In this document: positions 16,884-31,829 of the stretch, in pieces
Layout of the letters: each line of letters opens with the position of its first letter
Numbering within the stretch: the stretch's first letter is position 1
From: an uncultured Pelagibacteraceae bacterium
Lineage (GTDB): Bacteria > Pseudomonadota > Alphaproteobacteria > Pelagibacterales > Pelagibacteraceae
DNA: 64,000 bases
Direction of reading: 5' to 3'
Assembly (NCBI GenBank): GCA_902560585.1
Contig: CACEMI010000007.1
Span: 875 to 64,874, forward strand
Program-made: the position numbers and the translations under genes
The notes under the pieces: generated by a model
What the model was told of the DNA's origin: nothing
What the model saw: the letters and a program-made list of their open reading frames with translations, nothing else
Database searches by the model: none

Positions 16884-17545
16884 TGGCAATCAAAGCCATA
16901 ATATTTGGTTCTATTGGTACGATAGTAGAAACATCAAATATTCAAAGAAATTGCTTTAATTCAGCTTTTAAAATCTCAGGATTAAAATGGTATTGGAGTA
17001 AAAAATTGTATCAATCAATGTTAAAAAAATCTGGAGGCGAAAAAAGAGTTAAAAAGTTTAGTCTAGAGAAAAAAACTTTAGTTAATGCAAAAAAAATCAG
17101 AAATTTAAAAACCTTAATTTTTAATAATTATTTAAAAAAGAATAAATTGAAGCCACGTGCTGGAGTAATTAATGTAATCAAATATTGTAAAAAAAATAAA
17201 ATTAAGATTGGCTTTGCAACCTCTACTACAAAAAATAATATTGATTCAGTATTTATATCTTTAAATAAATATTTAAAAAAAAGTGATTTTGATTACATCG
17301 GACACAACAAAATTATAAAAAACTTTAATAATAAAACTGATATTTACTTACATTGTCTAAAAAAATTAAAACTTTCAAATAAAGATTGTTTAGCAATTGA
17401 AGATACAGAGATTAGTTTAAAATATGCTAAAAAAGCTAAATTAAGATGTGTTGCCTTCCCGGGCGATTATCACCGCTCCGGGAAGTACAAGGATTCATTT
17501 ACAAAAGTTAAACTTCTTAATTCAAAAATATTTGCTGATTTATAG
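16883..17545 (+). CDS. HAD-superfamily CbbY-like protein with degenerate motif I
   Basis: KAIIFGSIGTIVET in place of FDxDGT; QRNCFNSAF and LAIEDT resemble CbbY. Confidence 0.75.
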   Translation: MAIKAIIFGSIGTIVETSNIQRNCFNSAFKISGLKWYWSKKLYQSMLKKSGGEKRVKKFSLEKKTLVNAKKIRNLKTLIFNNYLKKNKLKPRAGVINVIKYCKKNKIKIGFATSTTKNNIDSVFISLNKYLKKSDFDYIGHNKIIKNFNNKTDIYLHCLKKLKLSNKDCLAIEDTEISLKYAKKAKLRCVAFPGDYHRSGKYKDSFTKVKLLNSKIFADL

Positions 17546-17983
17546 TTGGTCTATCAAACCTGGTGCTAATTTCTTAGACTTTGATGAAAATCTTAACTTC
17601 TTAATAGCATCTAGGTTAGATTTATCTTCTCCAACAACCACAAAACCAATCATTCCCATATTTTTGTGTGGTGTACACCAATAAGCATAAATTCCTGGAA
17701 CCTCGAACTTGTATTCAACATCCTTATTAAACTTTGATTTAAACTTACCAACTCCTTCTGGTACACCCTTTTTTATGAATTCAACGTTATGTCCTTTATC
17801 TGTTGCCTTCCAAAGAACTGTATCACCAGGGTTAACTCTTACTATTTTAGGCTCAAAAACATTTGATTCTTTATCAAGCCTATTAAGCATTTCCACTGTT
17901 ACATCCGCACCTAAAGCTATATTCGTAAAAAATATACTGATTAATATTATAAATGAACTTGTTAATTTATTATATTTAGCCAT
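17540..17983 (-). CDS. Pseudoazurin (type-1 blue copper protein)
   Basis: Signal peptide, VEMLN, DKGHNV and YWCTPHKNMGM copper ligands; ATG at 17983 preferred over TTG at 18010. Confidence 0.9.
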   Translation of the reverse strand: MAKYNKLTSSFIILISIFFTNIALGADVTVEMLNRLDKESNVFEPKIVRVNPGDTVLWKATDKGHNVEFIKKGVPEGVGKFKSKFNKDVEYKFEVPGIYAYWCTPHKNMGMIGFVVVGEDKSNLDAIKKLRFSSKSKKLAPGLIDQL

Positions 17984-18048
17984 AGCGCTGATATATTCTT
18001 TTAAAGTCAATAAACAATAACCATATGGTGTAACAAGTTGACACGTCT

Positions 18049-24512: not shown

Positions 24513-25172
24513 TTATTTTGAAGGGTCAGGTACTTTTCTTAAATATGGTTTAACTGTTTCCCAACCATCTGGATAAATTTTCTTAGCCTCTTCATCTTTA
24601 ACTGCTGGAAGAATAACTACATCTTCACCTTTTTTCCAGTTAGCTGGTGTTGCAACTTTATGTTTTGCAGTAAGTTGCATTGAGTCTATGGCTCTTAAAA
24701 TTTCATGGAAATTTCTTCCTGTTGCCATAGGATAAGTTAAATAAAGACCAATTCTTTTATCTGGTCTTACAACAAAAATAGTTCTTACAGTCTCATTATC
24801 TACTGCAGTACGACCCATTGATGTTGTTCCTGCATCGGCTTCCAACATATTAAAAAGTTTTGCAACTTTTAAATCTTCGTCAGCGATTATAGGATAATCT
24901 GGCATTGTTCCAGACACATCTTTAATATCATTCAACCATTTTTTATGATCCTCTACCCCATCAACACTTAATCCAATAACTTTTACATTTCTTGCATCAA
25001 ACTCAGCTTTCATTTGTCCTAATGAACCTAATTCTGTTGTACAAACTGGTGTAAAATCTTTTGGGTGAGAAAATAAAACGCCCCAACTATCTCCAAGCCA
25101 CTCATGAAAAGAAATATCTCCTTCAGTAGTTTTGCATTGAAAATCTGGACACATACTGTTTATTTTAAGCAT
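24513..25172 (-). CDS. 1-Cys peroxiredoxin (Prx6 class)
   Basis: FSHPKDFTPVCTTELG, YPMATGRNF and ATPANW motifs. Confidence 0.95.
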   Translation of the reverse strand: MLKINSMCPDFQCKTTEGDISFHEWLGDSWGVLFSHPKDFTPVCTTELGSLGQMKAEFDARNVKVIGLSVDGVEDHKKWLNDIKDVSGTMPDYPIIADEDLKVAKLFNMLEADAGTTSMGRTAVDNETVRTIFVVRPDKRIGLYLTYPMATGRNFHEILRAIDSMQLTAKHKVATPANWKKGEDVVILPAVKDEEAKKIYPDGWETVKPYLRKVPDPSK

Positions 25173-25250: not shown

Positions 25251-25943
25251 ATGATATTTAATCAACTATTTGATCAAAAATCATCAACCTACACTTATAT
25301 TATATCGAGTGGTAAAGGGAGAGAAGCATTAATCATTGACCCTGTGATTGAACATACTGATGGATATATTAATTATTTAGAAAATTTAGATCTAAAATTG
25401 GTTAAAGTAATAGATACACATATTCATGCAGATCATGTAACTGGATTAAACGAATTAAACAAAAGAACAAATTGTACTCGTATAATGGGTGAAAATTCTA
25501 AATCTGAAGTTATTGATATTAAATTAAAAGATGAAGAAAATGTGAGTATTGAAAATATTAACCTTAAAGCTATTTACACCCCTGGTCATACTGACTGTTC
25601 TTATAGCTATCTAATGAAAGATAGAGTTTTCACAGGGGATACTCTTTTAATTAATGGAACTGGTAGAACTGACTTTCAAAATGGTAGTGCTCATCAGGCT
25701 TATGAGTCATTATTTGGTAAATTGTTAAAACTTCCTGAAGAAACGCTTGTATACCCTGCCCATGATTATAATGGAAAAAAAAATTCAACAATAGGTAATG
25801 AAAAAAATAATAACCCAAGACTTCAGGTTAGCTCAAAAGAGGAGTATGTTGAAATCATGGATAATCTTAATCTAACAAATCCAAAAATGATGGATGTAGC
25901 AGTTCCAGCGAATTTAAAGGGTTTGACGCTCAAAGAACTTTAA
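25251..25943 (+). CDS. Persulfide dioxygenase (ETHE1/Sdo-like metallo-beta-lactamase fold)
   Basis: QLFD..SSTYTY, THIHADHVTG, TPGHT, GRTDFQ, YPAHDY, NPRL and AVPANL motifs. Confidence 0.9.
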   Translation: MIFNQLFDQKSSTYTYIISSGKGREALIIDPVIEHTDGYINYLENLDLKLVKVIDTHIHADHVTGLNELNKRTNCTRIMGENSKSEVIDIKLKDEENVSIENINLKAIYTPGHTDCSYSYLMKDRVFTGDTLLINGTGRTDFQNGSAHQAYESLFGKLLKLPEETLVYPAHDYNGKKNSTIGNEKNNNPRLQVSSKEEYVEIMDNLNLTNPKMMDVAVPANLKGLTLKEL

Positions 25944-25997
25944 AATCAAGCTTTATAAAAGTGTTGTTTTTAGAAAATTAAGAATTATATAAGACTT

Positions 25998-26108
25998 ATG
26001 GTATGCAATAATTCACACTGCAAATGTAAAAACTGTTCTTGTGACAGATGTGTTTGTAAAAACTGTGATTGCAAACCATCATCAGAAAACTGCTGTTGTA
26101 ATAAGTAG
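25998..26108 (+). CDS. Cys-rich 36-aa peptide, metallothionein-like (absent from the ORF track)
   Basis: Hand translation MVCNNSHCKCKNCSCDRCVCKNCDCKPSSENCCCNK*: 12 Cys and 1 His, four CxC at period 5, terminal CCC. Confidence 0.8.
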   Translation: MVCNNSHCKCKNCSCDRCVCKNCDCKPSSENCCCNK

Positions 26109-26136: not shown

Positions 26137-26718
26137 ATGAATGATTTTTTAGAGTCGATAATTAAAAGAGATCCTGCTGCAAGGTCAAAGTTAAGTTTAA
26201 TACTAACTTATCCTGGTGTTAAAGCTGTATTTTTTCATAGAATTGCGAACTTTTTTGCCGTAGCAAAATTTCATCTTTTAGCGAGAATAATTTCTCAATT
26301 TTCAAGATTTTTAACTGGTATTGAAATTCATCCAAACGCAAAAATTGGTAAAAATCTTTTTATTGATCATGGTATGGGAGTAGTTATTGGTGAAACTTCA
26401 GATATAGGTGATAATGTAACTATTTATCATATGGCAACATTAGGTGGAATTGCTCCAAGTATTAATTCAGATAATCAAAGAAATATTAAAAGACACCCAA
26501 CGCTAAAAGAAAATGTAGTTGTAGGATCTGGCGCACAAATACTTGGACCAGTTGTAGTTGGTAAAAATTCAAAAATTGGAGCTAATGCTGTAGTTACAAA
26601 AGATGTTCCAGAAAATGCAGTAATGGTTGGAATTCCTGCAAAAAATGTCGGAACCGCATCTGAAGAATTTAAACCCTATGGTGTTGCACCAGGGGGTGAT
26701 ACAAAGCTTGATGTATGA
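26137..26718 (+). CDS. cysE: Serine O-acetyltransferase
   Basis: [31 protein letters not shown] and hexapeptide repeats. Confidence 0.96.
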
Positions 26719-27716
26719 AAACTTTACAAAATAATTTTATCGAAGCAATAGGAAACACTCCTTTATTTAAATTAAAAGCTGCATCAGAAATTACTGGTTG
26801 TAATATTTATGGAAAAGCAGAGTACCTTAATCCAGGAGGCTCTGTAAAAGATAGAGCAGCTTTAGCTTTGATAAGAGACGCTGAAGAAAAAAAACTAATT
26901 TCAAAAGGAGGAATAATTGTTGAGGGGACTGCTGGCAATACTGGAATTGGTTTATGTCTTTTAGGAAATTCGATTGGTTACAAAACTATAATCGTAATGA
27001 ATGATAATCAAACACAAGAAAAAAAAGATTTATTAAGAAGTATAGGTGCTGATTTGAGATTGGTACCACCAAAACCATATAAAGATGAAAATAATTTTGT
27101 TAAGTATGCAGGTCGTTTAGCTGAAGAATTAAAAAGTAGCAATAATCATGGTGTCGTTTGGGCTAACCAATTCGATAATACTGCAAACATGAAAGGGCAT
27201 TATGAAACTACTGGACCTGAAATATGGGAACAAACTGAGGGAAAAGTTGATGGATTTGTTTGTTCTTCTGGAACTGGAGGAACTATTGCTGGAGTTAGTA
27301 GTTTTTTAAAAGAAAAGAATAAAAACATTAAAATATATTTATCGGATCCAACTGGTTCATCCCTATATAATTACATTGAAAATGGAGAATTAAAGAGTGA
27401 AGGTGGCTCGATAACCGAAGGTATTGGATCTAGTAGAGTTACTGCAAATTTTGCAAAAGCAAATATTGATGGAGCATTTTCAATAAGTGATCATGAGTCT
27501 TTACCTGTTTTATTCGATTTAATTGAAAAAGAAGGTCTTAGTTTAGGTACTAGTTGTGGGGTGAATATAGCTGGAGCTATTAGATTGGGTAAACTTTTAG
27601 GTCCTGGTAAAACGATTGTAACAATACTTTGTGATAAATCTGATAAATACAACTCAAAGATGTTTAATAAATCTTTTTTAAAAGAAAAAGGCCTTCCCTA
27701 TCCTCACTGGATATAA
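26715..27716 (+). CDS. cysK: Cysteine synthase (PLP-dependent O-acetylserine sulfhydrylase family)
   Basis: [29 protein letters not shown] and EGIG motifs; overlaps cysE. Confidence 0.9.
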
Positions 27717-27801: not shown

Positions 27802-28185
27802 ATGGACGTAAAAGAACAAACTAAAAAAGCATATGAACTTTTTGGTTCTGGAGATATGGAAACATTTTTTAACGATATGATCGATGATGAAATCGTTTGG
27901 ACTTTTCCAGGTAAAGAAGGTGTACATCCACTTTCTGGAGTTCACAAAGGAAAACAAGCTATGATGGCTGCAATGTCTAAAATCCCAGCTACTTGGCCAA
28001 ATTTCCATTTAAAAGTTTTAGATATGATAAGTGAAGGAAATAAAGTTTTTGCAAGAGTTCATGCAACTGCAGATAACATGGATACTATGTTTGGTCACTA
28101 TTTTGAAGTAAGTGATGAGGGAAAAACTAAAGTTATGATGACTTTTGATGATACACTTAGCATGTTCAATGCAATGAAGAAGTAA
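27802..28185 (+). CDS. SnoaL/NTF2-like small protein
   Basis: KAYELFGSGD, DDEIVWTFPG..HPLSGVHKGK and ISEGNKV patterns; AAGGAG RBS. Confidence 0.85.
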   Translation: MDVKEQTKKAYELFGSGDMETFFNDMIDDEIVWTFPGKEGVHPLSGVHKGKQAMMAAMSKIPATWPNFHLKVLDMISEGNKVFARVHATADNMDTMFGHYFEVSDEGKTKVMMTFDDTLSMFNAMKK

Positions 28186-28193
28186 GGAACAAT

Positions 28194-28520
28194 ATGTCAA
28201 TTTTAGAAAAACTAAATAAAGCAATCATGGAAAAAGATGGTGCAGCAGCTGGTGAGCTGGTGCACGATGACTACAAAATGTTTTCCCATCTTAAAGGAGA
28301 ATATGTGCATATGGGTAAGGCAGGTATGGTTGAAGCCGTAAGTAAAGGGATGATGAGTCCCGCAAAATACAGGATCCTTTTTGAAAATGATGAAATTGGT
28401 TTTGATCATTCGTATGTTACTTATCAAGATGGAAATACAGAAGCTTTGATGTGCTGTTGGAAGTTTAAAGACGGTAAAATCATTGAATTAGAAACTGGAG
28501 CAACAAAAATACCAAAATAA
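28194..28520 (+). CDS. SnoaL/NTF2-like small protein (paralogue of 31012-31332)
   Basis: LVHDDY, ENDEIG and KDGKIIELETGAT; AAGGA RBS. Confidence 0.82.
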   Translation: MSILEKLNKAIMEKDGAAAGELVHDDYKMFSHLKGEYVHMGKAGMVEAVSKGMMSPAKYRILFENDEIGFDHSYVTYQDGNTEALMCCWKFKDGKIIELETGATKIPK

Positions 28521-28544
28521 CTATAAACTTACAAAGGAGTTAAT

Positions 28545-28610
28545 ATGGCCAGCATTGAGTTTAAAGCTTTTGATAAAGCATATGAATTTGCTGGGGTCTG
28601 GGGGGAATAA
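28545..28610 (+). pseudogene. 21-codon ORF with strong RBS; gene remnant or micropeptide
   Basis: AAAGGAG-ttaat-ATG; reads MASIEFKAFDKAYEFAGVWGE*; shares aaagcatatgaa with the 27802 gene. Confidence 0.4.
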
Positions 28611-28611
28611 A

Positions 28612-28881
28612 ATGGTAAAAATGGTTGGTAACTTTGAGGTAAAAGACTGGGCTCATTGGAAAAAAATGTTTGATGAACATTCTGGCCCAAGAGAAGCAGC
28701 AGGTATTAAAACTATTTACGTTGGAAATGAAATAGAAAATCCAAATAAAGTACATATTGTGATGGAAACACCAGCAGCAGACACTATGCAAAAATTTATG
28801 CAGAGCCCAGAGAATGCTAAAGTAATTGCGGAATCTGGACATAAACAAGAGACAACAGTAATGAGCGTTTGCTCTGATTAA
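28612..28881 (+). CDS. Small alpha+beta-barrel protein, DUF3764-like
   Basis: VKDWAHWKKMFD, NPNKVHIV and VIAESGH patterns; ATG at 28612 after a G-rich RBS. Confidence 0.7.
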   Translation: MVKMVGNFEVKDWAHWKKMFDEHSGPREAAGIKTIYVGNEIENPNKVHIVMETPAADTMQKFMQSPENAKVIAESGHKQETTVMSVCSD

Positions 28882-28907
28882 ATTAACAAAAAAAAAGGAG
28901 ATATATT

Positions 28908-29201
28908 ATGTTTGTAAAAATAGAACAAAAACTTTTAAAAGGTTTTAATTCTTGGAAGGAAATGATGCTTGCAAATAGTGAGAAACTTAAAAAGTATGGA
29001 ATGACAATAGCTTTTGCAGGTGCAGATAAAGAAGATGATAATGCTATGACTGTAGTTATTCATTTTGAATCACCCGAGGGCTTAAAAGGTTTTGGTGGAG
29101 ATGCAGAACTAACTCAAGCAAGAATAGATTCTGGAGTAATAATGGACCAATCTAAAATGACCATGATGACTGATGAATCTGTAATGAACCACAAAGGATA
29201 A
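28908..29201 (+). CDS. Small alpha+beta-barrel protein, DUF3764-like
   Basis: FNSWKEM, KEDDNAMTVVIHF and ARIDSGV; AAGGAG RBS. Confidence 0.65.
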   Translation: MFVKIEQKLLKGFNSWKEMMLANSEKLKKYGMTIAFAGADKEDDNAMTVVIHFESPEGLKGFGGDAELTQARIDSGVIMDQSKMTMMTDESVMNHKG

Positions 29202-29206
29202 TTCTA

Positions 29207-29692
29207 ATGATGAAAAAAATATATGTAATTATGTTTTTTTTAATATTTACAACATCAAGTTTTGCAGATGGTCATAAAGGAAAAATTGATCTTAAAGGTT
29301 TTATTGTTGGAGATAACAAATTTCTTACTGATAACGTGGGTAACTTTTTAACTTTTACTTACGATGGAGTTGGAGGATTAATGGCAGTCGAAGGTACAAC
29401 ATTCATGGATAATGCTTCACAATATTGCATTGGCGCAGGTACAATCCCAGGAAAGGGATTTGAAATGGGACACTGTAAAATAAATCAAATGGATGGGGAT
29501 ACTATTTTTACATACTACGAAATTCCACTTGGAGACTCAATGAATGGTACATTTAAATGCTTAGGGGGAACAGGAAAATATAAAGGTATAGAATGTAGTG
29601 GCGCAACAGGTTACACACAAATTAACTCAGCCCAAGAAAATAAATTTGCCTCATCAATTTATTTTAAAGGTGGATATTCTTTAATGAAATAA
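29207..29692 (+). CDS. Secreted beta-rich hypothetical protein (allene-oxide-cyclase/dirigent-like barrel possible)
   Basis: Signal peptide ending SFA, four Cys, GGTGKYKGI motif. Confidence 0.65.
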   Translation: MMKKIYVIMFFLIFTTSSFADGHKGKIDLKGFIVGDNKFLTDNVGNFLTFTYDGVGGLMAVEGTTFMDNASQYCIGAGTIPGKGFEMGHCKINQMDGDTIFTYYEIPLGDSMNGTFKCLGGTGKYKGIECSGATGYTQINSAQENKFASSIYFKGGYSLMK

Positions 29693-29745
29693 TTGAATAA
29701 TCATTAGATTAATTTAAAATACGAAATAAAAAAAAGGAAAAAAAA

Positions 29746-30033
29746 ATGAAATACTATATGGTAACTCACACTTTTAAATCTAAAGAAATGAAAGACAAAT
29801 TTAACGAGGTTTTAGGCGGCATGTCCAGAGAAGATATGATTAAATCTTCCACTAGCGATAAAGCTAAATGCCAAATGACATATTACACTCCAGGTGATAC
29901 TATGACAATGTTTTGTCATTGGATGGCAGAAAGTACTGATGCTATTAATGAACAGCTTTCTCAGATGAATGATTTTTTTGAACCTCACCAATTTACTGAG
30001 GTTAAAGAAGAAGTTTTCGATTTTAACAAATAG
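29746..30033 (+). CDS. Small alpha+beta-barrel hypothetical protein (DUF4242/DUF3303-like)
   Basis: YMVTHTF start and FCHWMAESTDAI pattern; AAGGA RBS. Confidence 0.6.
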   Translation: MKYYMVTHTFKSKEMKDKFNEVLGGMSREDMIKSSTSDKAKCQMTYYTPGDTMTMFCHWMAESTDAINEQLSQMNDFFEPHQFTEVKEEVFDFNK

Positions 30034-30042
30034 GAGGAAAAA

Positions 30043-30333
30043 ATGGAAAAAGAAGTTTTAGTGATCGTAGATTTGAAAGAAGGAAAACTTGAAAAATTTA
30101 TGGGATGGATGCAATCAGATGAGGGTATGAGTGTAAGAAAATCAGCAGCTCATCCAGAAAAAACTATAGGAGCAGTAAAGCCAGATAAAAGTGGTGTAAT
30201 GTTTAAAGTATTTGTTCATAATATGGAAAAAATGAAAGAACTAGTATCTGGCACACATCCAGTTGCTAAGCCAATTTACGATGAGTGTGTTGAGAAAATG
30301 ACTGCTTGGGATTTGACTAAAGTTGAAATGTAA
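30043..30333 (+). CDS. Small hypothetical protein, probable ferredoxin-like alpha+beta fold
   Basis: AGGAGG RBS; VIVDLKEGKLEKF start resembles ABM/Dabb proteins. Confidence 0.6.
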   Translation: MEKEVLVIVDLKEGKLEKFMGWMQSDEGMSVRKSAAHPEKTIGAVKPDKSGVMFKVFVHNMEKMKELVSGTHPVAKPIYDECVEKMTAWDLTKVEM

Positions 30334-30334
30334 T

Positions 30335-30658
30335 ATGGCAAAATATTATGTAATTGGAAAAGTAAGTAAGGAGCTTTTACATCGAATGCAGAAAGATCCA
30401 TCAGCTGACAGATTTGCTTCAACAAAAAAAGTTGTTGAAGCTGTAGGAGGTAAAATGATTAGTTATGAGTGGGTTCGTGGTAGATTTGATGTAATGTGTT
30501 GCGTTGAAGGAGACGCTGAAACTGTTGTTGGAATGAAAGTAGCTTTTTTAAATTCAGGACTTATGGATGAATTAATGATCCATGAGGTAATTGATTATAA
30601 TAAAGCATTTGGAAAAGCTGCTGATGCAGCCAAATCAGTAGTCAAACCCGCAGAATAA
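30335..30658 (+). CDS. GYD-domain protein
   Basis: MAKYYVIG, DR...KKVVEAVGGK and RGRFDV patterns; ATG at 30335. Confidence 0.75.
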   Translation: MAKYYVIGKVSKELLHRMQKDPSADRFASTKKVVEAVGGKMISYEWVRGRFDVMCCVEGDAETVVGMKVAFLNSGLMDELMIHEVIDYNKAFGKAADAAKSVVKPAE

Positions 30659-30689
30659 ATTATAATTAATTTATTGAAAGGAGAAGATA

Positions 30690-30977
30690 ATGAGCGCATA
30701 TCTATTGGCGAATATAACAGTAAATAACCCTGAGAATTACAAAGAGTACGTTGAGAAAGTAAAATCCATTGTTGAAAAATTTGATGGAGAGTATTTGGTT
30801 AGAGGGGGAGAAATGTCTGTTATAGAAGGTGATTGGCCTCACAAAAGAAATATTGTTATTAAATTTCCATCTCATGAAAAAGCAATGGAGTGGTACAATT
30901 CTGAAGAATATAAACCAATTAGACAAATAAGACACGACAATGCTGTGTCAAATTCTATAATTGTTGATGGAGTTTAA
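30690..30977 (+). CDS. DUF1330 domain protein
   Basis: GEYLVRGG, EGDW..RNIVIKFPS and WYNSEEY motifs. Confidence 0.9.
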   Translation: MSAYLLANITVNNPENYKEYVEKVKSIVEKFDGEYLVRGGEMSVIEGDWPHKRNIVIKFPSHEKAMEWYNSEEYKPIRQIRHDNAVSNSIIVDGV

Positions 30978-31011
30978 ATATAATAATTTTACAAAAACTA
31001 AGGAGATTAAA

Positions 31012-31332
31012 ATGTCAATATTAGAAAAATATAGCGCGGCTATAAAAGATAAAGATGAAGCAGCAATGAATGAGCTTTTGCATGATGATTTTAAATTTAC
31101 TATGCATAAATCAGGTAATACTTTAAGCAAATCTGATGTGATCAAATGGGCCATGAGTGGAGATATTAAACAGAGAGACACTAGAATTATTTACGAAAAT
31201 GATGAGGTTGGAGTACATCATGCCTTTGTAACATTTGACGATGGTAATGTTGAAGCAGTAATGGCAGTTTACAAATATGATAATGGAAAAATCATGAGTT
31301 TAGAGACTGGCGCAACTCCTATGCCAAAATAA
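31012..31332 (+). CDS. SnoaL/NTF2-like small protein (paralogue of 28194-28520)
   Basis: AAGGAG RBS, ATG at 31012; LLHDDF, YENDEVG and LETGATPMPK. Confidence 0.82.
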   Translation: MSILEKYSAAIKDKDEAAMNELLHDDFKFTMHKSGNTLSKSDVIKWAMSGDIKQRDTRIIYENDEVGVHHAFVTFDDGNVEAVMAVYKYDNGKIMSLETGATPMPK

Positions 31333-31829
31333 TGAAAAAGCTTATACTTTTATTTGTTTTAATAGCCTTTAATTCAAATGCAGCGTCAATGAAGATGATT
31401 GGATCTAAGGGTGATCCGAATGAAGTAACCAGAGTAATAGAAGTAAAGATGTATGACAATTATTATGAACCAAGCTCAATTAAAGTGAAAAAAGGTGAAA
31501 CTGTAAAAATAATTGTAAAAAATTTGGGTGAACTTGTTCATGAATATAATATTGCTACAAAAGAGATGCATATAAAACATCAGCCTGAAATGGCAAGATT
31601 AATAGAGCATGATATTTTATTAGGAGATAGTATCGATCATGCTAAGATGAAAGAAATGTCTAAAAAAGATCACTCGCTTGGGCATAAACATGCTAATAGC
31701 GTGATGTTAGAACCTAGTAAAACTGGAGAGATAATTTGGAAATTTTCCAAAGATATAGCTTTAGAAATGGCATGCAATATTCCTGGTCATTACGAAAGTG
31801 GAATGGTTGGGCCAATAATTATTGAGTAA
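31332..31829 (+). CDS. Periplasmic cupredoxin with His/Met-rich insert (CopI-like)
   Basis: Signal peptide, GELVHEY, ACNIPGHYESGM type-1 Cu site, DHAKMKEMSKKDHSLGHKH insert. Confidence 0.85.
   Translation: MKKLILLFVLIAFNSNAASMKMIGSKGDPNEVTRVIEVKMYDNYYEPSSIKVKKGETVKIIVKNLGELVHEYNIATKEMHIKHQPEMARLIEHDILLGDSIDHAKMKEMSKKDHSLGHKHANSVMLEPSKTGEIIWKFSKDIALEMACNIPGHYESGMVGPIIIE

Follow-up and report, generated by a model that had tools for sequence, protein, structure and literature searches.

An unannotated open reading frame (ORF) in a SAR11 bacterium of the family Pelagibacteraceae, which encodes a small Cys-rich peptide and stands directly ahead of the cysteine synthesis genes cysE and cysK, is a real and conserved gene. 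As far as sequence comparison allows, its products are best read as a Cys-only metallothionein-like family outside BmtA/SmtA and all Pfam and NCBIfam families tested. The peptide is predicted to fold around a metal-thiolate cluster and probably buffers Cu(I) or Zn/Cd, with the Cys supplied from the same transcript. The ORF was found in a window of 64,000 nucleotides of the contig CACEMI010000007.1, and the features considered here are collected in Table 1.

Direct translation of the frame, from its ATG to its TAG, bore out the 36-residue peptide with 12 Cys described in the initial annotation, and the 8 TGT and 4 TGC codons and a 12-nt repeat with copies 30 nt apart could be read off the sequence just as claimed there. 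The Cys residues occupy position 3, CxC units beginning at residues 8, 13, 18 and 23 (a period of 5) and a CCC cluster at residues 32–34. In the bacterium's own genome assembly (1.21 Mb, 86% complete), this is the only one of 1441 ATG-started ORFs of 30–45 aa with more than 6 Cys, and the probability of at least 12 Cys codons among 35, calculated from base composition, is about 1e-10; therefore, the ORF is not a chance one.

Table 1. Features of the peptide locus and its surroundings, in window positions
Feature	Coordinates	Strand	Remarks
1-Cys peroxiredoxin	24513..25172	-	PF00578 and PF10417; divergent neighbour
MBL-fold protein, likely stand-alone persulfide dioxygenase	25251..25943	+	usual upstream neighbour of the peptide gene
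Promoter, predicted	25964..25991	+	TTG-led box 25964-25969, 16-nt spacer, TATATA box 25986-25991
Metallothionein-like ORF, 36 aa, 12 Cys	25998..26108	+	first cistron of a predicted leaderless transcript
cysE, serine O-acetyltransferase (short form)	26137..26718	+	TIGR01172 and NF041874 over cut-off; predicted to be co-transcribed
cysK, cysteine synthase A	26715..27716	+	NF007989 over cut-off
CopI-like cupredoxin	31332..31829	+	NF051440, 151.6 vs 280 bits, below cut-off; loosely associated

The bacterial homologues comprise 139 distinct peptides of 36–44 aa with 10–13 Cys, the number being 11 or 12 in 137. Cys makes up 30.0% of all residues, aromatic residues 0.5% and His 0.7% (it is present in 35 of the 139 peptides), and Lys is much more common than Arg (10.9% vs 1.4%). 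Conservation of the Cys positions, a check proposed in the initial annotation, proved to be strict: 11 Cys are near-invariant, Cys3, 8, 10, 13, 18 and 20 are each retained in 138 peptides, as is Asn5, and the C-terminal CxC-x-Pro...CCC end is retained in 135. Four Cys patterns account for 131 peptides, and the commonest of them, found in 70, lacks Cys15 and has a 5-residue spacer. The strict period-5 arrangement of CxC units with CCC, to which the initial annotation had drawn attention, holds for the window peptide and fails as a family trait; its exact form was found in 27 of the 139 peptides and is a trait of a 36-aa subclade. The twelfth Cys is located at position 15 (52 peptides) or in a CCCC tail (14 peptides), never in both. 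A variant of 44 aa and 13 Cys, with an extra Cys-containing insert (L143:2279-2410, plus strand), was missed by the first profile.

Metallothioneins are operationally defined as small proteins with less than 10% aromatic residues and 15–35% Cys (PMC7216689). The size and composition of the bacterial family lie within these limits, and its conserved CxC and CCC clusters are another metallothionein trait. High Cys content and fixed spacing would also suit a disulfide-knotted or modified peptide, such as a secreted effector or a RiPP precursor, and the only PDB match of the bacterial profile was a disulfide module (E 1.6). However, Cys appears as early as residue 3, with no signal or leader segment before it; the regular neighbours include neither a modifying enzyme nor an exporter, and the commonest form of the peptide has an odd number of Cys (11 in 76 of 139 peptides). 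In our opinion, this explanation is very improbable.

A dN/dS-type comparison over 86 loci, also suggested at the outset, indicated purifying selection on the peptide gene (pN/pS 0.15–0.36), to be compared with 0.03–0.13 for cysE and 0.05–0.16 for the upstream MBL-fold gene, the likely persulfide dioxygenase (PDO). The NNC fraction over six two-codon amino acids is 0.41, above the 99th percentile of the genome (0.38; median 0.18), and the TGC share is 37% vs 22%. This bias, similar to that of highly expressed genes, is read as selection for strong translation.

Searches with a single peptide matched 12 of 100 relatives, and a 12-sequence profile gave matches in 67 of 400 genomes of the same genus (completeness at least 80%); for the best assemblies alone, the figure was 16 of 157, and the 68 positives of this search include no closed genome. 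When 185,579 genomes were scanned, 87 of 260 candidates could be confirmed, and the 80 that were retained all bear the title Pelagibacteraceae or Pelagibacterales. From metagenome contigs, 88 of 423 candidates were confirmed and 80 kept. One genome of 27 matched in a second genus of the order, and no match was obtained in 9 of the 11 genera of the order searched or in 250 further genomes of the class. All the peptide counts are lower bounds because the 13-Cys variant escaped the first profile. As to the PDO-like gene, it is present in 333 of the 400 same-genus genomes (one row, G315, is an unpublished genome and enters this tally only), and 40 PDO loci from genomes with no match comprised 39 without the peptide and one with the 44-aa, 13-Cys variant. 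When 85 thinned rows were placed in a quick PDO tree, the 58 rows with the peptide were all located on one side of a branch with a support of 99, intermixed with 18 peptide-free rows. Gain and loss need 14 changes on this tree and 23 on shuffles, and no more than 2 changes are forced by well-supported branches. The simplest reading is that the peptide gene would have arisen in one branch and then been lost repeatedly.

The view of the initial annotation that this was an unannotated Cys-rich gene, with a Cys pattern unlike that of known bacterial metallothioneins, has been upheld by the homologues and by family searches. None of 22 members matched any Pfam family at E 10, PF02069 and the eukaryotic metallothionein families (PF00131, PF02067 and others) included; PF02069 was without a match in the own genome and was matched in a Synechococcus control. 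NCBIfam and PHROG gave no family match for the peptides. A phmmer search of 1.84 billion representatives, with the single peptide as query, gave no matches, the exact peptide sequence is absent from a 15-billion collection, and none of 48 homologues, nor members of 10 of their clusters, bears a name. In the open literature searched, no description was found, and none of five short family motifs is present in the supplements of PMC11705764. In the PDB, there was no significant match to the bacterial or the phage profile. Two matches are leads only, namely a fish metallothionein chain as the single PDB match of the phage profile (E 1.2) and a metallothionein cluster (PF02067) as the top Atlas match (0.86, below the tool's level of 0.9). 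An AlphaFold2 model, obtained on alignment A2 for a 44-aa homologue rather than the window peptide, had a pLDDT of 60.4 and a pTM of 0.27, and Foldseek with this model returned nothing meaningful.

The locus has a regular architecture. In the window, 54 nt separate the MBL-fold gene from the peptide ORF and 28 nt the ORF from cysE; in relatives, the dioxygenase gene lies 37–55 nt upstream of the peptide in 120 of 121 loci, and cysE 25–39 nt downstream in 119 of 121. Of 99 further loci, both PDO and cysE are present in 76, and a contig end truncates 14. An intact peptide without cysE downstream occurs in 6 (5 of them facing a convergent gene) and one without PDO upstream in 4, one locus being counted in both of the last groups. 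Displaced copies of the peptide gene (L166, L228, L237 and L238) adjoin glutaredoxin or MsrB genes.

The predicted TATATA box ends 6 nt before the ATG of the window ORF, and there is no Shine-Dalgarno (SD) sequence. A TTG...TATA(T/A) motif ending 5–10 nt before the ATG is present in 115 of 122 distinct upstream sequences, and an SD-like word in none of the 122. This motif is absent ahead of cysE in 56 peptide loci and was not listed by an E. coli-type promoter scan. Of 14 PDO-cysE loci without the peptide, 10 have (by eye) a similar TATATA box, with no TTG, right before the cysE ATG, so it looks as if the peptide gene had been gained, or lost, as the first cistron behind the cysE promoter. It may be added that cysE itself is perhaps leaderless in those loci (L133-L137, L139-L142 and L161). 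Of 18 RNA runs containing part of the locus, 8 were examined, and their contigs, which come from related strains, show neither strand, start nor level and have no silent control stretch beside them, give a weak hint only: they overlap the peptide ORF in 7 of the 8 runs, from 5 studies (run X10 has no contig on the ORF). Several contigs bridge the ORF and cysE, and one ends exactly at 25998. The promoter region is uncovered in five runs and traversed by contigs in two, and the latter count against a leaderless start. The predicted leaderless promoter shared with cysE-cysK was overlooked in the initial annotation, together with the attenuator explanation and the phage branch considered below.

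A predicted leaderless, Cys-rich ORF with a 3' CCC, placed right before cysteine synthesis genes, recalls the polycysteine leaderless small ORFs of mycobacteria, where base pairing of the Cys tract with the downstream SD has been described (10.1101/834739). By analogy, the peptide ORF might be a cysteine-sensing leader, and ribosome stalling on its Cys codons would switch on cysE-cysK. The synonymous divergence of the peptide gene in close pairs, in bins set by cysE divergence, is indeed below that of the PDO gene (0.15–0.25 vs 0.30–0.46), but in distant pairs it is at the level of the neighbours (0.68 vs 0.58 and 0.65). Over 20 diverse loci, predicted pairing between the ORF and the cysE start averages 0.06 vs 0.19 in synonymously recoded controls, and the folding z averages -0.43. 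There is no terminator-like site and no Rfam match at the locus, TGC is enriched along with the other NNC codons, intact copies face convergent genes, and the phage relatives have no cys genes nearby. In contrast to the mycobacterial ORFs, the SAR11 Cys codons are spread at fixed spacing, do not pair with the downstream start, and the ORF survives without the operon. A leader of this kind is thus hardly probable, and what has been retained seems to be the peptide itself rather than its translation as such.

The upstream MBL-fold gene is likely a persulfide dioxygenase because of its fold and because relatives have an SQR-like gene next to it, as well as fusions with rhodanese. The place of the ORF between this gene and cysE-cysK is as first described, and the name of the dioxygenase, which scores below its family cut-off, has to be qualified as likely. 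In 50 of 91 loci, the 1-Cys peroxiredoxin gene is the immediate upstream neighbour of the dioxygenase, and in 38 of 91 PDO is preceded by an SQR-like gene, below the cut-off (e.g., L044:938-2215, plus strand); the latter was not found in the own assembly. Among close relatives, the SQR-like flavoprotein gene comes and goes between those of the peroxiredoxin and PDO.

The regular neighbours are thus sulfur and thiol-redox genes and not metal genes, which counts against a metal role. They would suit a thiol-redox or sulfane-sulfur buffer or a reduced-sulfur store, which takes up persulfide from SQR and the dioxygenase, or banks the cysteine made by CysE and CysK when sulfide is available, metal being secondary. 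The glutaredoxin and MsrB genes at displaced copies agree with such a role, as does the lack of assimilatory sulfate reduction in SAR11 (PMC5069961), and the five fusion-length dioxygenases inspected have no peptide behind them. These enzymes (L146-L149 and L157) are of 332–337 aa and have other neighbours, among them a DUF4396-like gene; L157 is a confirmed PDO-rhodanese fusion. The idea that the peptide substitutes for a fused rhodanese domain was dropped, as most stand-alone dioxygenases inspected are without the peptide. The same observation speaks against sulfur buffering as the main function, and so do the persistence of the peptide without the dioxygenase in 4 loci and the phage relatives, which have no sulfur-oxidation neighbours. 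A store, moreover, needs Cys content, not a fixed spacing with conserved Asn5 and Pro; these features argue for a fold, so that pure sulfur storage, as considered in the initial annotation, was not borne out. Mammalian MT-3 binds Zn through persulfide (PMC12618007), and therefore a sulfur buffer can coexist with the metallothionein reading. As the main role of the peptide, sulfur buffering or storage nevertheless appears unlikely.

Returning to metals, searches of the own genome and of 80 chosen Pelagibacter-genus genomes (40 peptide-positive and 40 peptide-negative, near-complete ones included) revealed no heavy-metal P1B-ATPase and no CDF exporter over the cut-off; the controls of the exporter search matched 14 of 14. 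According to PMC4161860, SAR11 bacteria have almost no detoxification genes, and the word 'metallothionein' is absent from a paper on SAR11 trace metals (PMC4771312). The absence of exporters is a motive for the peptide, yet it does not separate carriers from non-carriers. Because the peptide-negative genomes are also without exporters, and 333 of the 400 same-genus genomes have no peptide match, the peptide is dispensable for life without pumps. A search of the own genome revealed no ArsR-type regulator, and its one MerR-like gene stands beside an IHF-like gene and plsX; thus, there is no visible regulator for metal induction.

A CopI-like gene is present in 34 of 40 peptide-positive vs 9 of 40 peptide-negative genomes, and a control ORF of 127 aa at 27802 in 28 of 40 vs 19 of 40. 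After removal of 12 near-identical genomes from the negatives, the figures are 9 of 28 for the CopI-like gene and 8 of 28 for the control, all these genomes being kin and not independent. A racemase control was near-universal (77 of 80) and hence uninformative. The CopI link cannot be separated from lineage because the non-metal control is similarly skewed after this removal, and co-occurrence was rejected as support, since lineage explains much of it; the specific tie to this gene, 5.2 kb distant, which had been suggested initially, is not retained. A second copper protein of the window, a pseudoazurin at 17540-18010 (minus strand, over the TIGR02375 cut-off), is 8 kb from the peptide. About ten small ORFs (95–161 aa) of the same strand follow cysK at 27802-31332 (plus strand); several are mutually similar, and they vary among relatives.

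The family extends to marine phages. From two scans for DNA patterns, 113 loci were obtained, with some contigs represented twice; a short ORF containing at least 6 Cys is present in 109 of them, and these ORFs correspond to 57 distinct peptides. These have mostly a 9-Cys core and no CCC tail, and 41 of the 57 have SD-like starts. Neighbouring genes include those of T4-like neck and baseplate proteins and prohead protease; cysE, cysK and PDO are absent from the fetched flanks of all 57 peptides. For three neighbouring phage proteins, the matches in cultured phages have at most 53% identity, and a tblastn search of one bacterial and one phage member against cultured phages gave no match. Twenty-five phage peptides of the first scan score 7.8–33.8 bits on the bacterial profile, and 23 of them exceed 13.0, the maximum of 880 shuffles. 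Profile-profile alignment of the two groups gave a probability of 97.2% with an E of 3.7e-11 over 31 columns; as the DNA patterns selected for the shared N-terminal motif, this similarity is partly circular, and the agreement extends past the first pattern. Judged by these comparisons, the SAR11 peptide and the mostly 9-Cys phage peptides are homologous. A viral search with alignment A2, which confirmed none of 194 candidates, was a false negative, the phage loci having been found by the pattern scans. The phage profile matches 229 metagenomic proteins, and among the 120 of them listed there is no Pfam domain and no name beyond 'hypothetical protein'. One marine phage contig (L290) contains a heme-related, aminolevulinate-synthase-like gene (by eye) and a DUF454 gene by the micro-gene.

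In 9 of the 57 phage peptides, an IscA-like, NifU-like or ferredoxin gene is located nearby, and in two types the NifU-like match starts 5 nt after the peptide stop. The contigs concerned are L274 and L303 (NifU-like), L268, L275, L280, L310, L327 and L369 (IscA-like) and L269 (ferredoxin). Such neighbours would fit an iron or Fe-S helper that acts together with A-type carriers and NifU-like proteins, either as a ligand of Fe or of an Fe-S fragment or as a shield for Fe-S assembly; CysK, in turn, supplies the sulfur source for Fe-S clusters. However, the figure of 9 of 57 stands without a background rate for phage DNA, the other 48 peptides have no such neighbour in the fetched flanks, no Fe-S assembly genes are listed at the displaced bacterial loci, and 11–12 Cys would exceed the need of one cluster. 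Shielding Fe-S assembly from Cu would fit the metallothionein reading equally, and a dedicated Fe-S function has, in our estimation, a low probability.

Summarizing, the following sequence of events may be proposed for the metallothionein reading. The promoter 6 nt before the ATG would give a leaderless mRNA with the peptide first and cysE-cysK behind, and the peptide would be produced in quantity. The core Cys, 11 in the SAR11 form and 9 in the phage branch, would wrap metal ions, and the transcript shared with CysE and CysK would pay for a 30%-Cys peptide in a lineage unable to reduce sulfate. The peptide would buffer, in the first place, Cu(I) and, in the second, Zn/Cd, in cells where no P1B-ATPase or CDF exporter was found, and phages would carry the shorter form as an auxiliary gene managing metals during infection. 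Tandem CxC-x2-5-CxC units with Lys and Asn are traits of copper metallothioneins (CuMTs), whereas CCC clusters are typical of cadmium ones (CdMTs) and almost absent from CuMTs (PMC4862169). The CCC cluster of the SAR11 peptides, by this analogy, cuts against Cu as the metal, and the predicted preference for Cu(I) over Zn/Cd is a slight one. A wider picture may also be drawn, in which the SAR11 form of this Cys-only family of SAR11 and large marine phages heads a sulfide-capture operon (SQR, dioxygenase, CysE and CysK) and handles metals via persulfide-loaded Cys; one 4-kDa peptide would then serve the cell both in place of metal pumps and as a bank of reduced sulfur, and strong copper ligands of seawater would have in it a genetically encoded source. 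It is a speculative proposal, and we regard it as rather doubtful.

SAR11 are the most abundant bacteria of the ocean, and one branch of them carries the peptide gene. An animal-like Cys-only form in about one-sixth of the Pelagibacter-genus genomes searched would be a first handle on how these cells deal with Cu, Zn and Cd without the usual pumps, and would help to explain why a sulfur-limited minimal cell spends 11–12 sulfur atoms on one peptide. The phage branch, in turn, would be a candidate auxiliary gene class missed by annotation.

Bacterial metallothioneins are known from few lineages (PMC13578184, PMC11705764) and favour His; the SAR11 family, with 30% Cys and scant His, is closer to the animal average than to bacterial forms (PMC11705764), and the likeness to eukaryotic metallothioneins noted in the initial annotation holds for composition. 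SmtA/BmtA and the Pseudomonas metallothioneins (PF02069) are, like the SAR11 peptide, small, bacterial and Cys-rich with CxC units, and they likely share the same metal buffering. The BmtA/SmtA family has conserved His ligands, which are not found in the SAR11 family, where His occurs in 35 of 139 peptides. The SAR11 peptide further differs in having no PF02069 match, 36–39 aa, 30% Cys and almost no His or aromatic residues, in an own genome without an ArsR/SmtB gene, and in its place in a predicted operon with cysE-cysK. The lineage and Cys layout of MymT, the mycobacterial Cu(I) metallothionein, are different from those of the SAR11 peptide. The common feature would be a small peptide that sequesters Cu(I) in the cytoplasm (PMC11672702), whereas the SAR11 peptide has no NCBIfam or Pfam match and no copper-sensing regulator was identified in the own genome.

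Ciliate family 7 metallothioneins (7b CuMT with CKC-x2-5-CxC and 7a CdMT with CCC) share with the SAR11 peptides tandem CxC units, Lys far in excess of Arg, about 30% Cys and CCC (PMC4862169). Unlike them, the SAR11 peptide is at most about one-third as long and consists of one module, in which a CuMT-type repeat is combined with a CdMT-type CCC, and there is no sequence match; the likeness is likely due to convergence. In animal metallothioneins, the alpha domain contains 11 Cys (M4 cluster) and the beta domain 9 Cys (M3 cluster). Although the SAR11 and phage peptides are single-domain, have their own spacing and give no significant match to these domains, their core Cys counts, 11 and 9, respectively, equal those of the two animal domains, and animal metallothionein clusters are the top Atlas leads.
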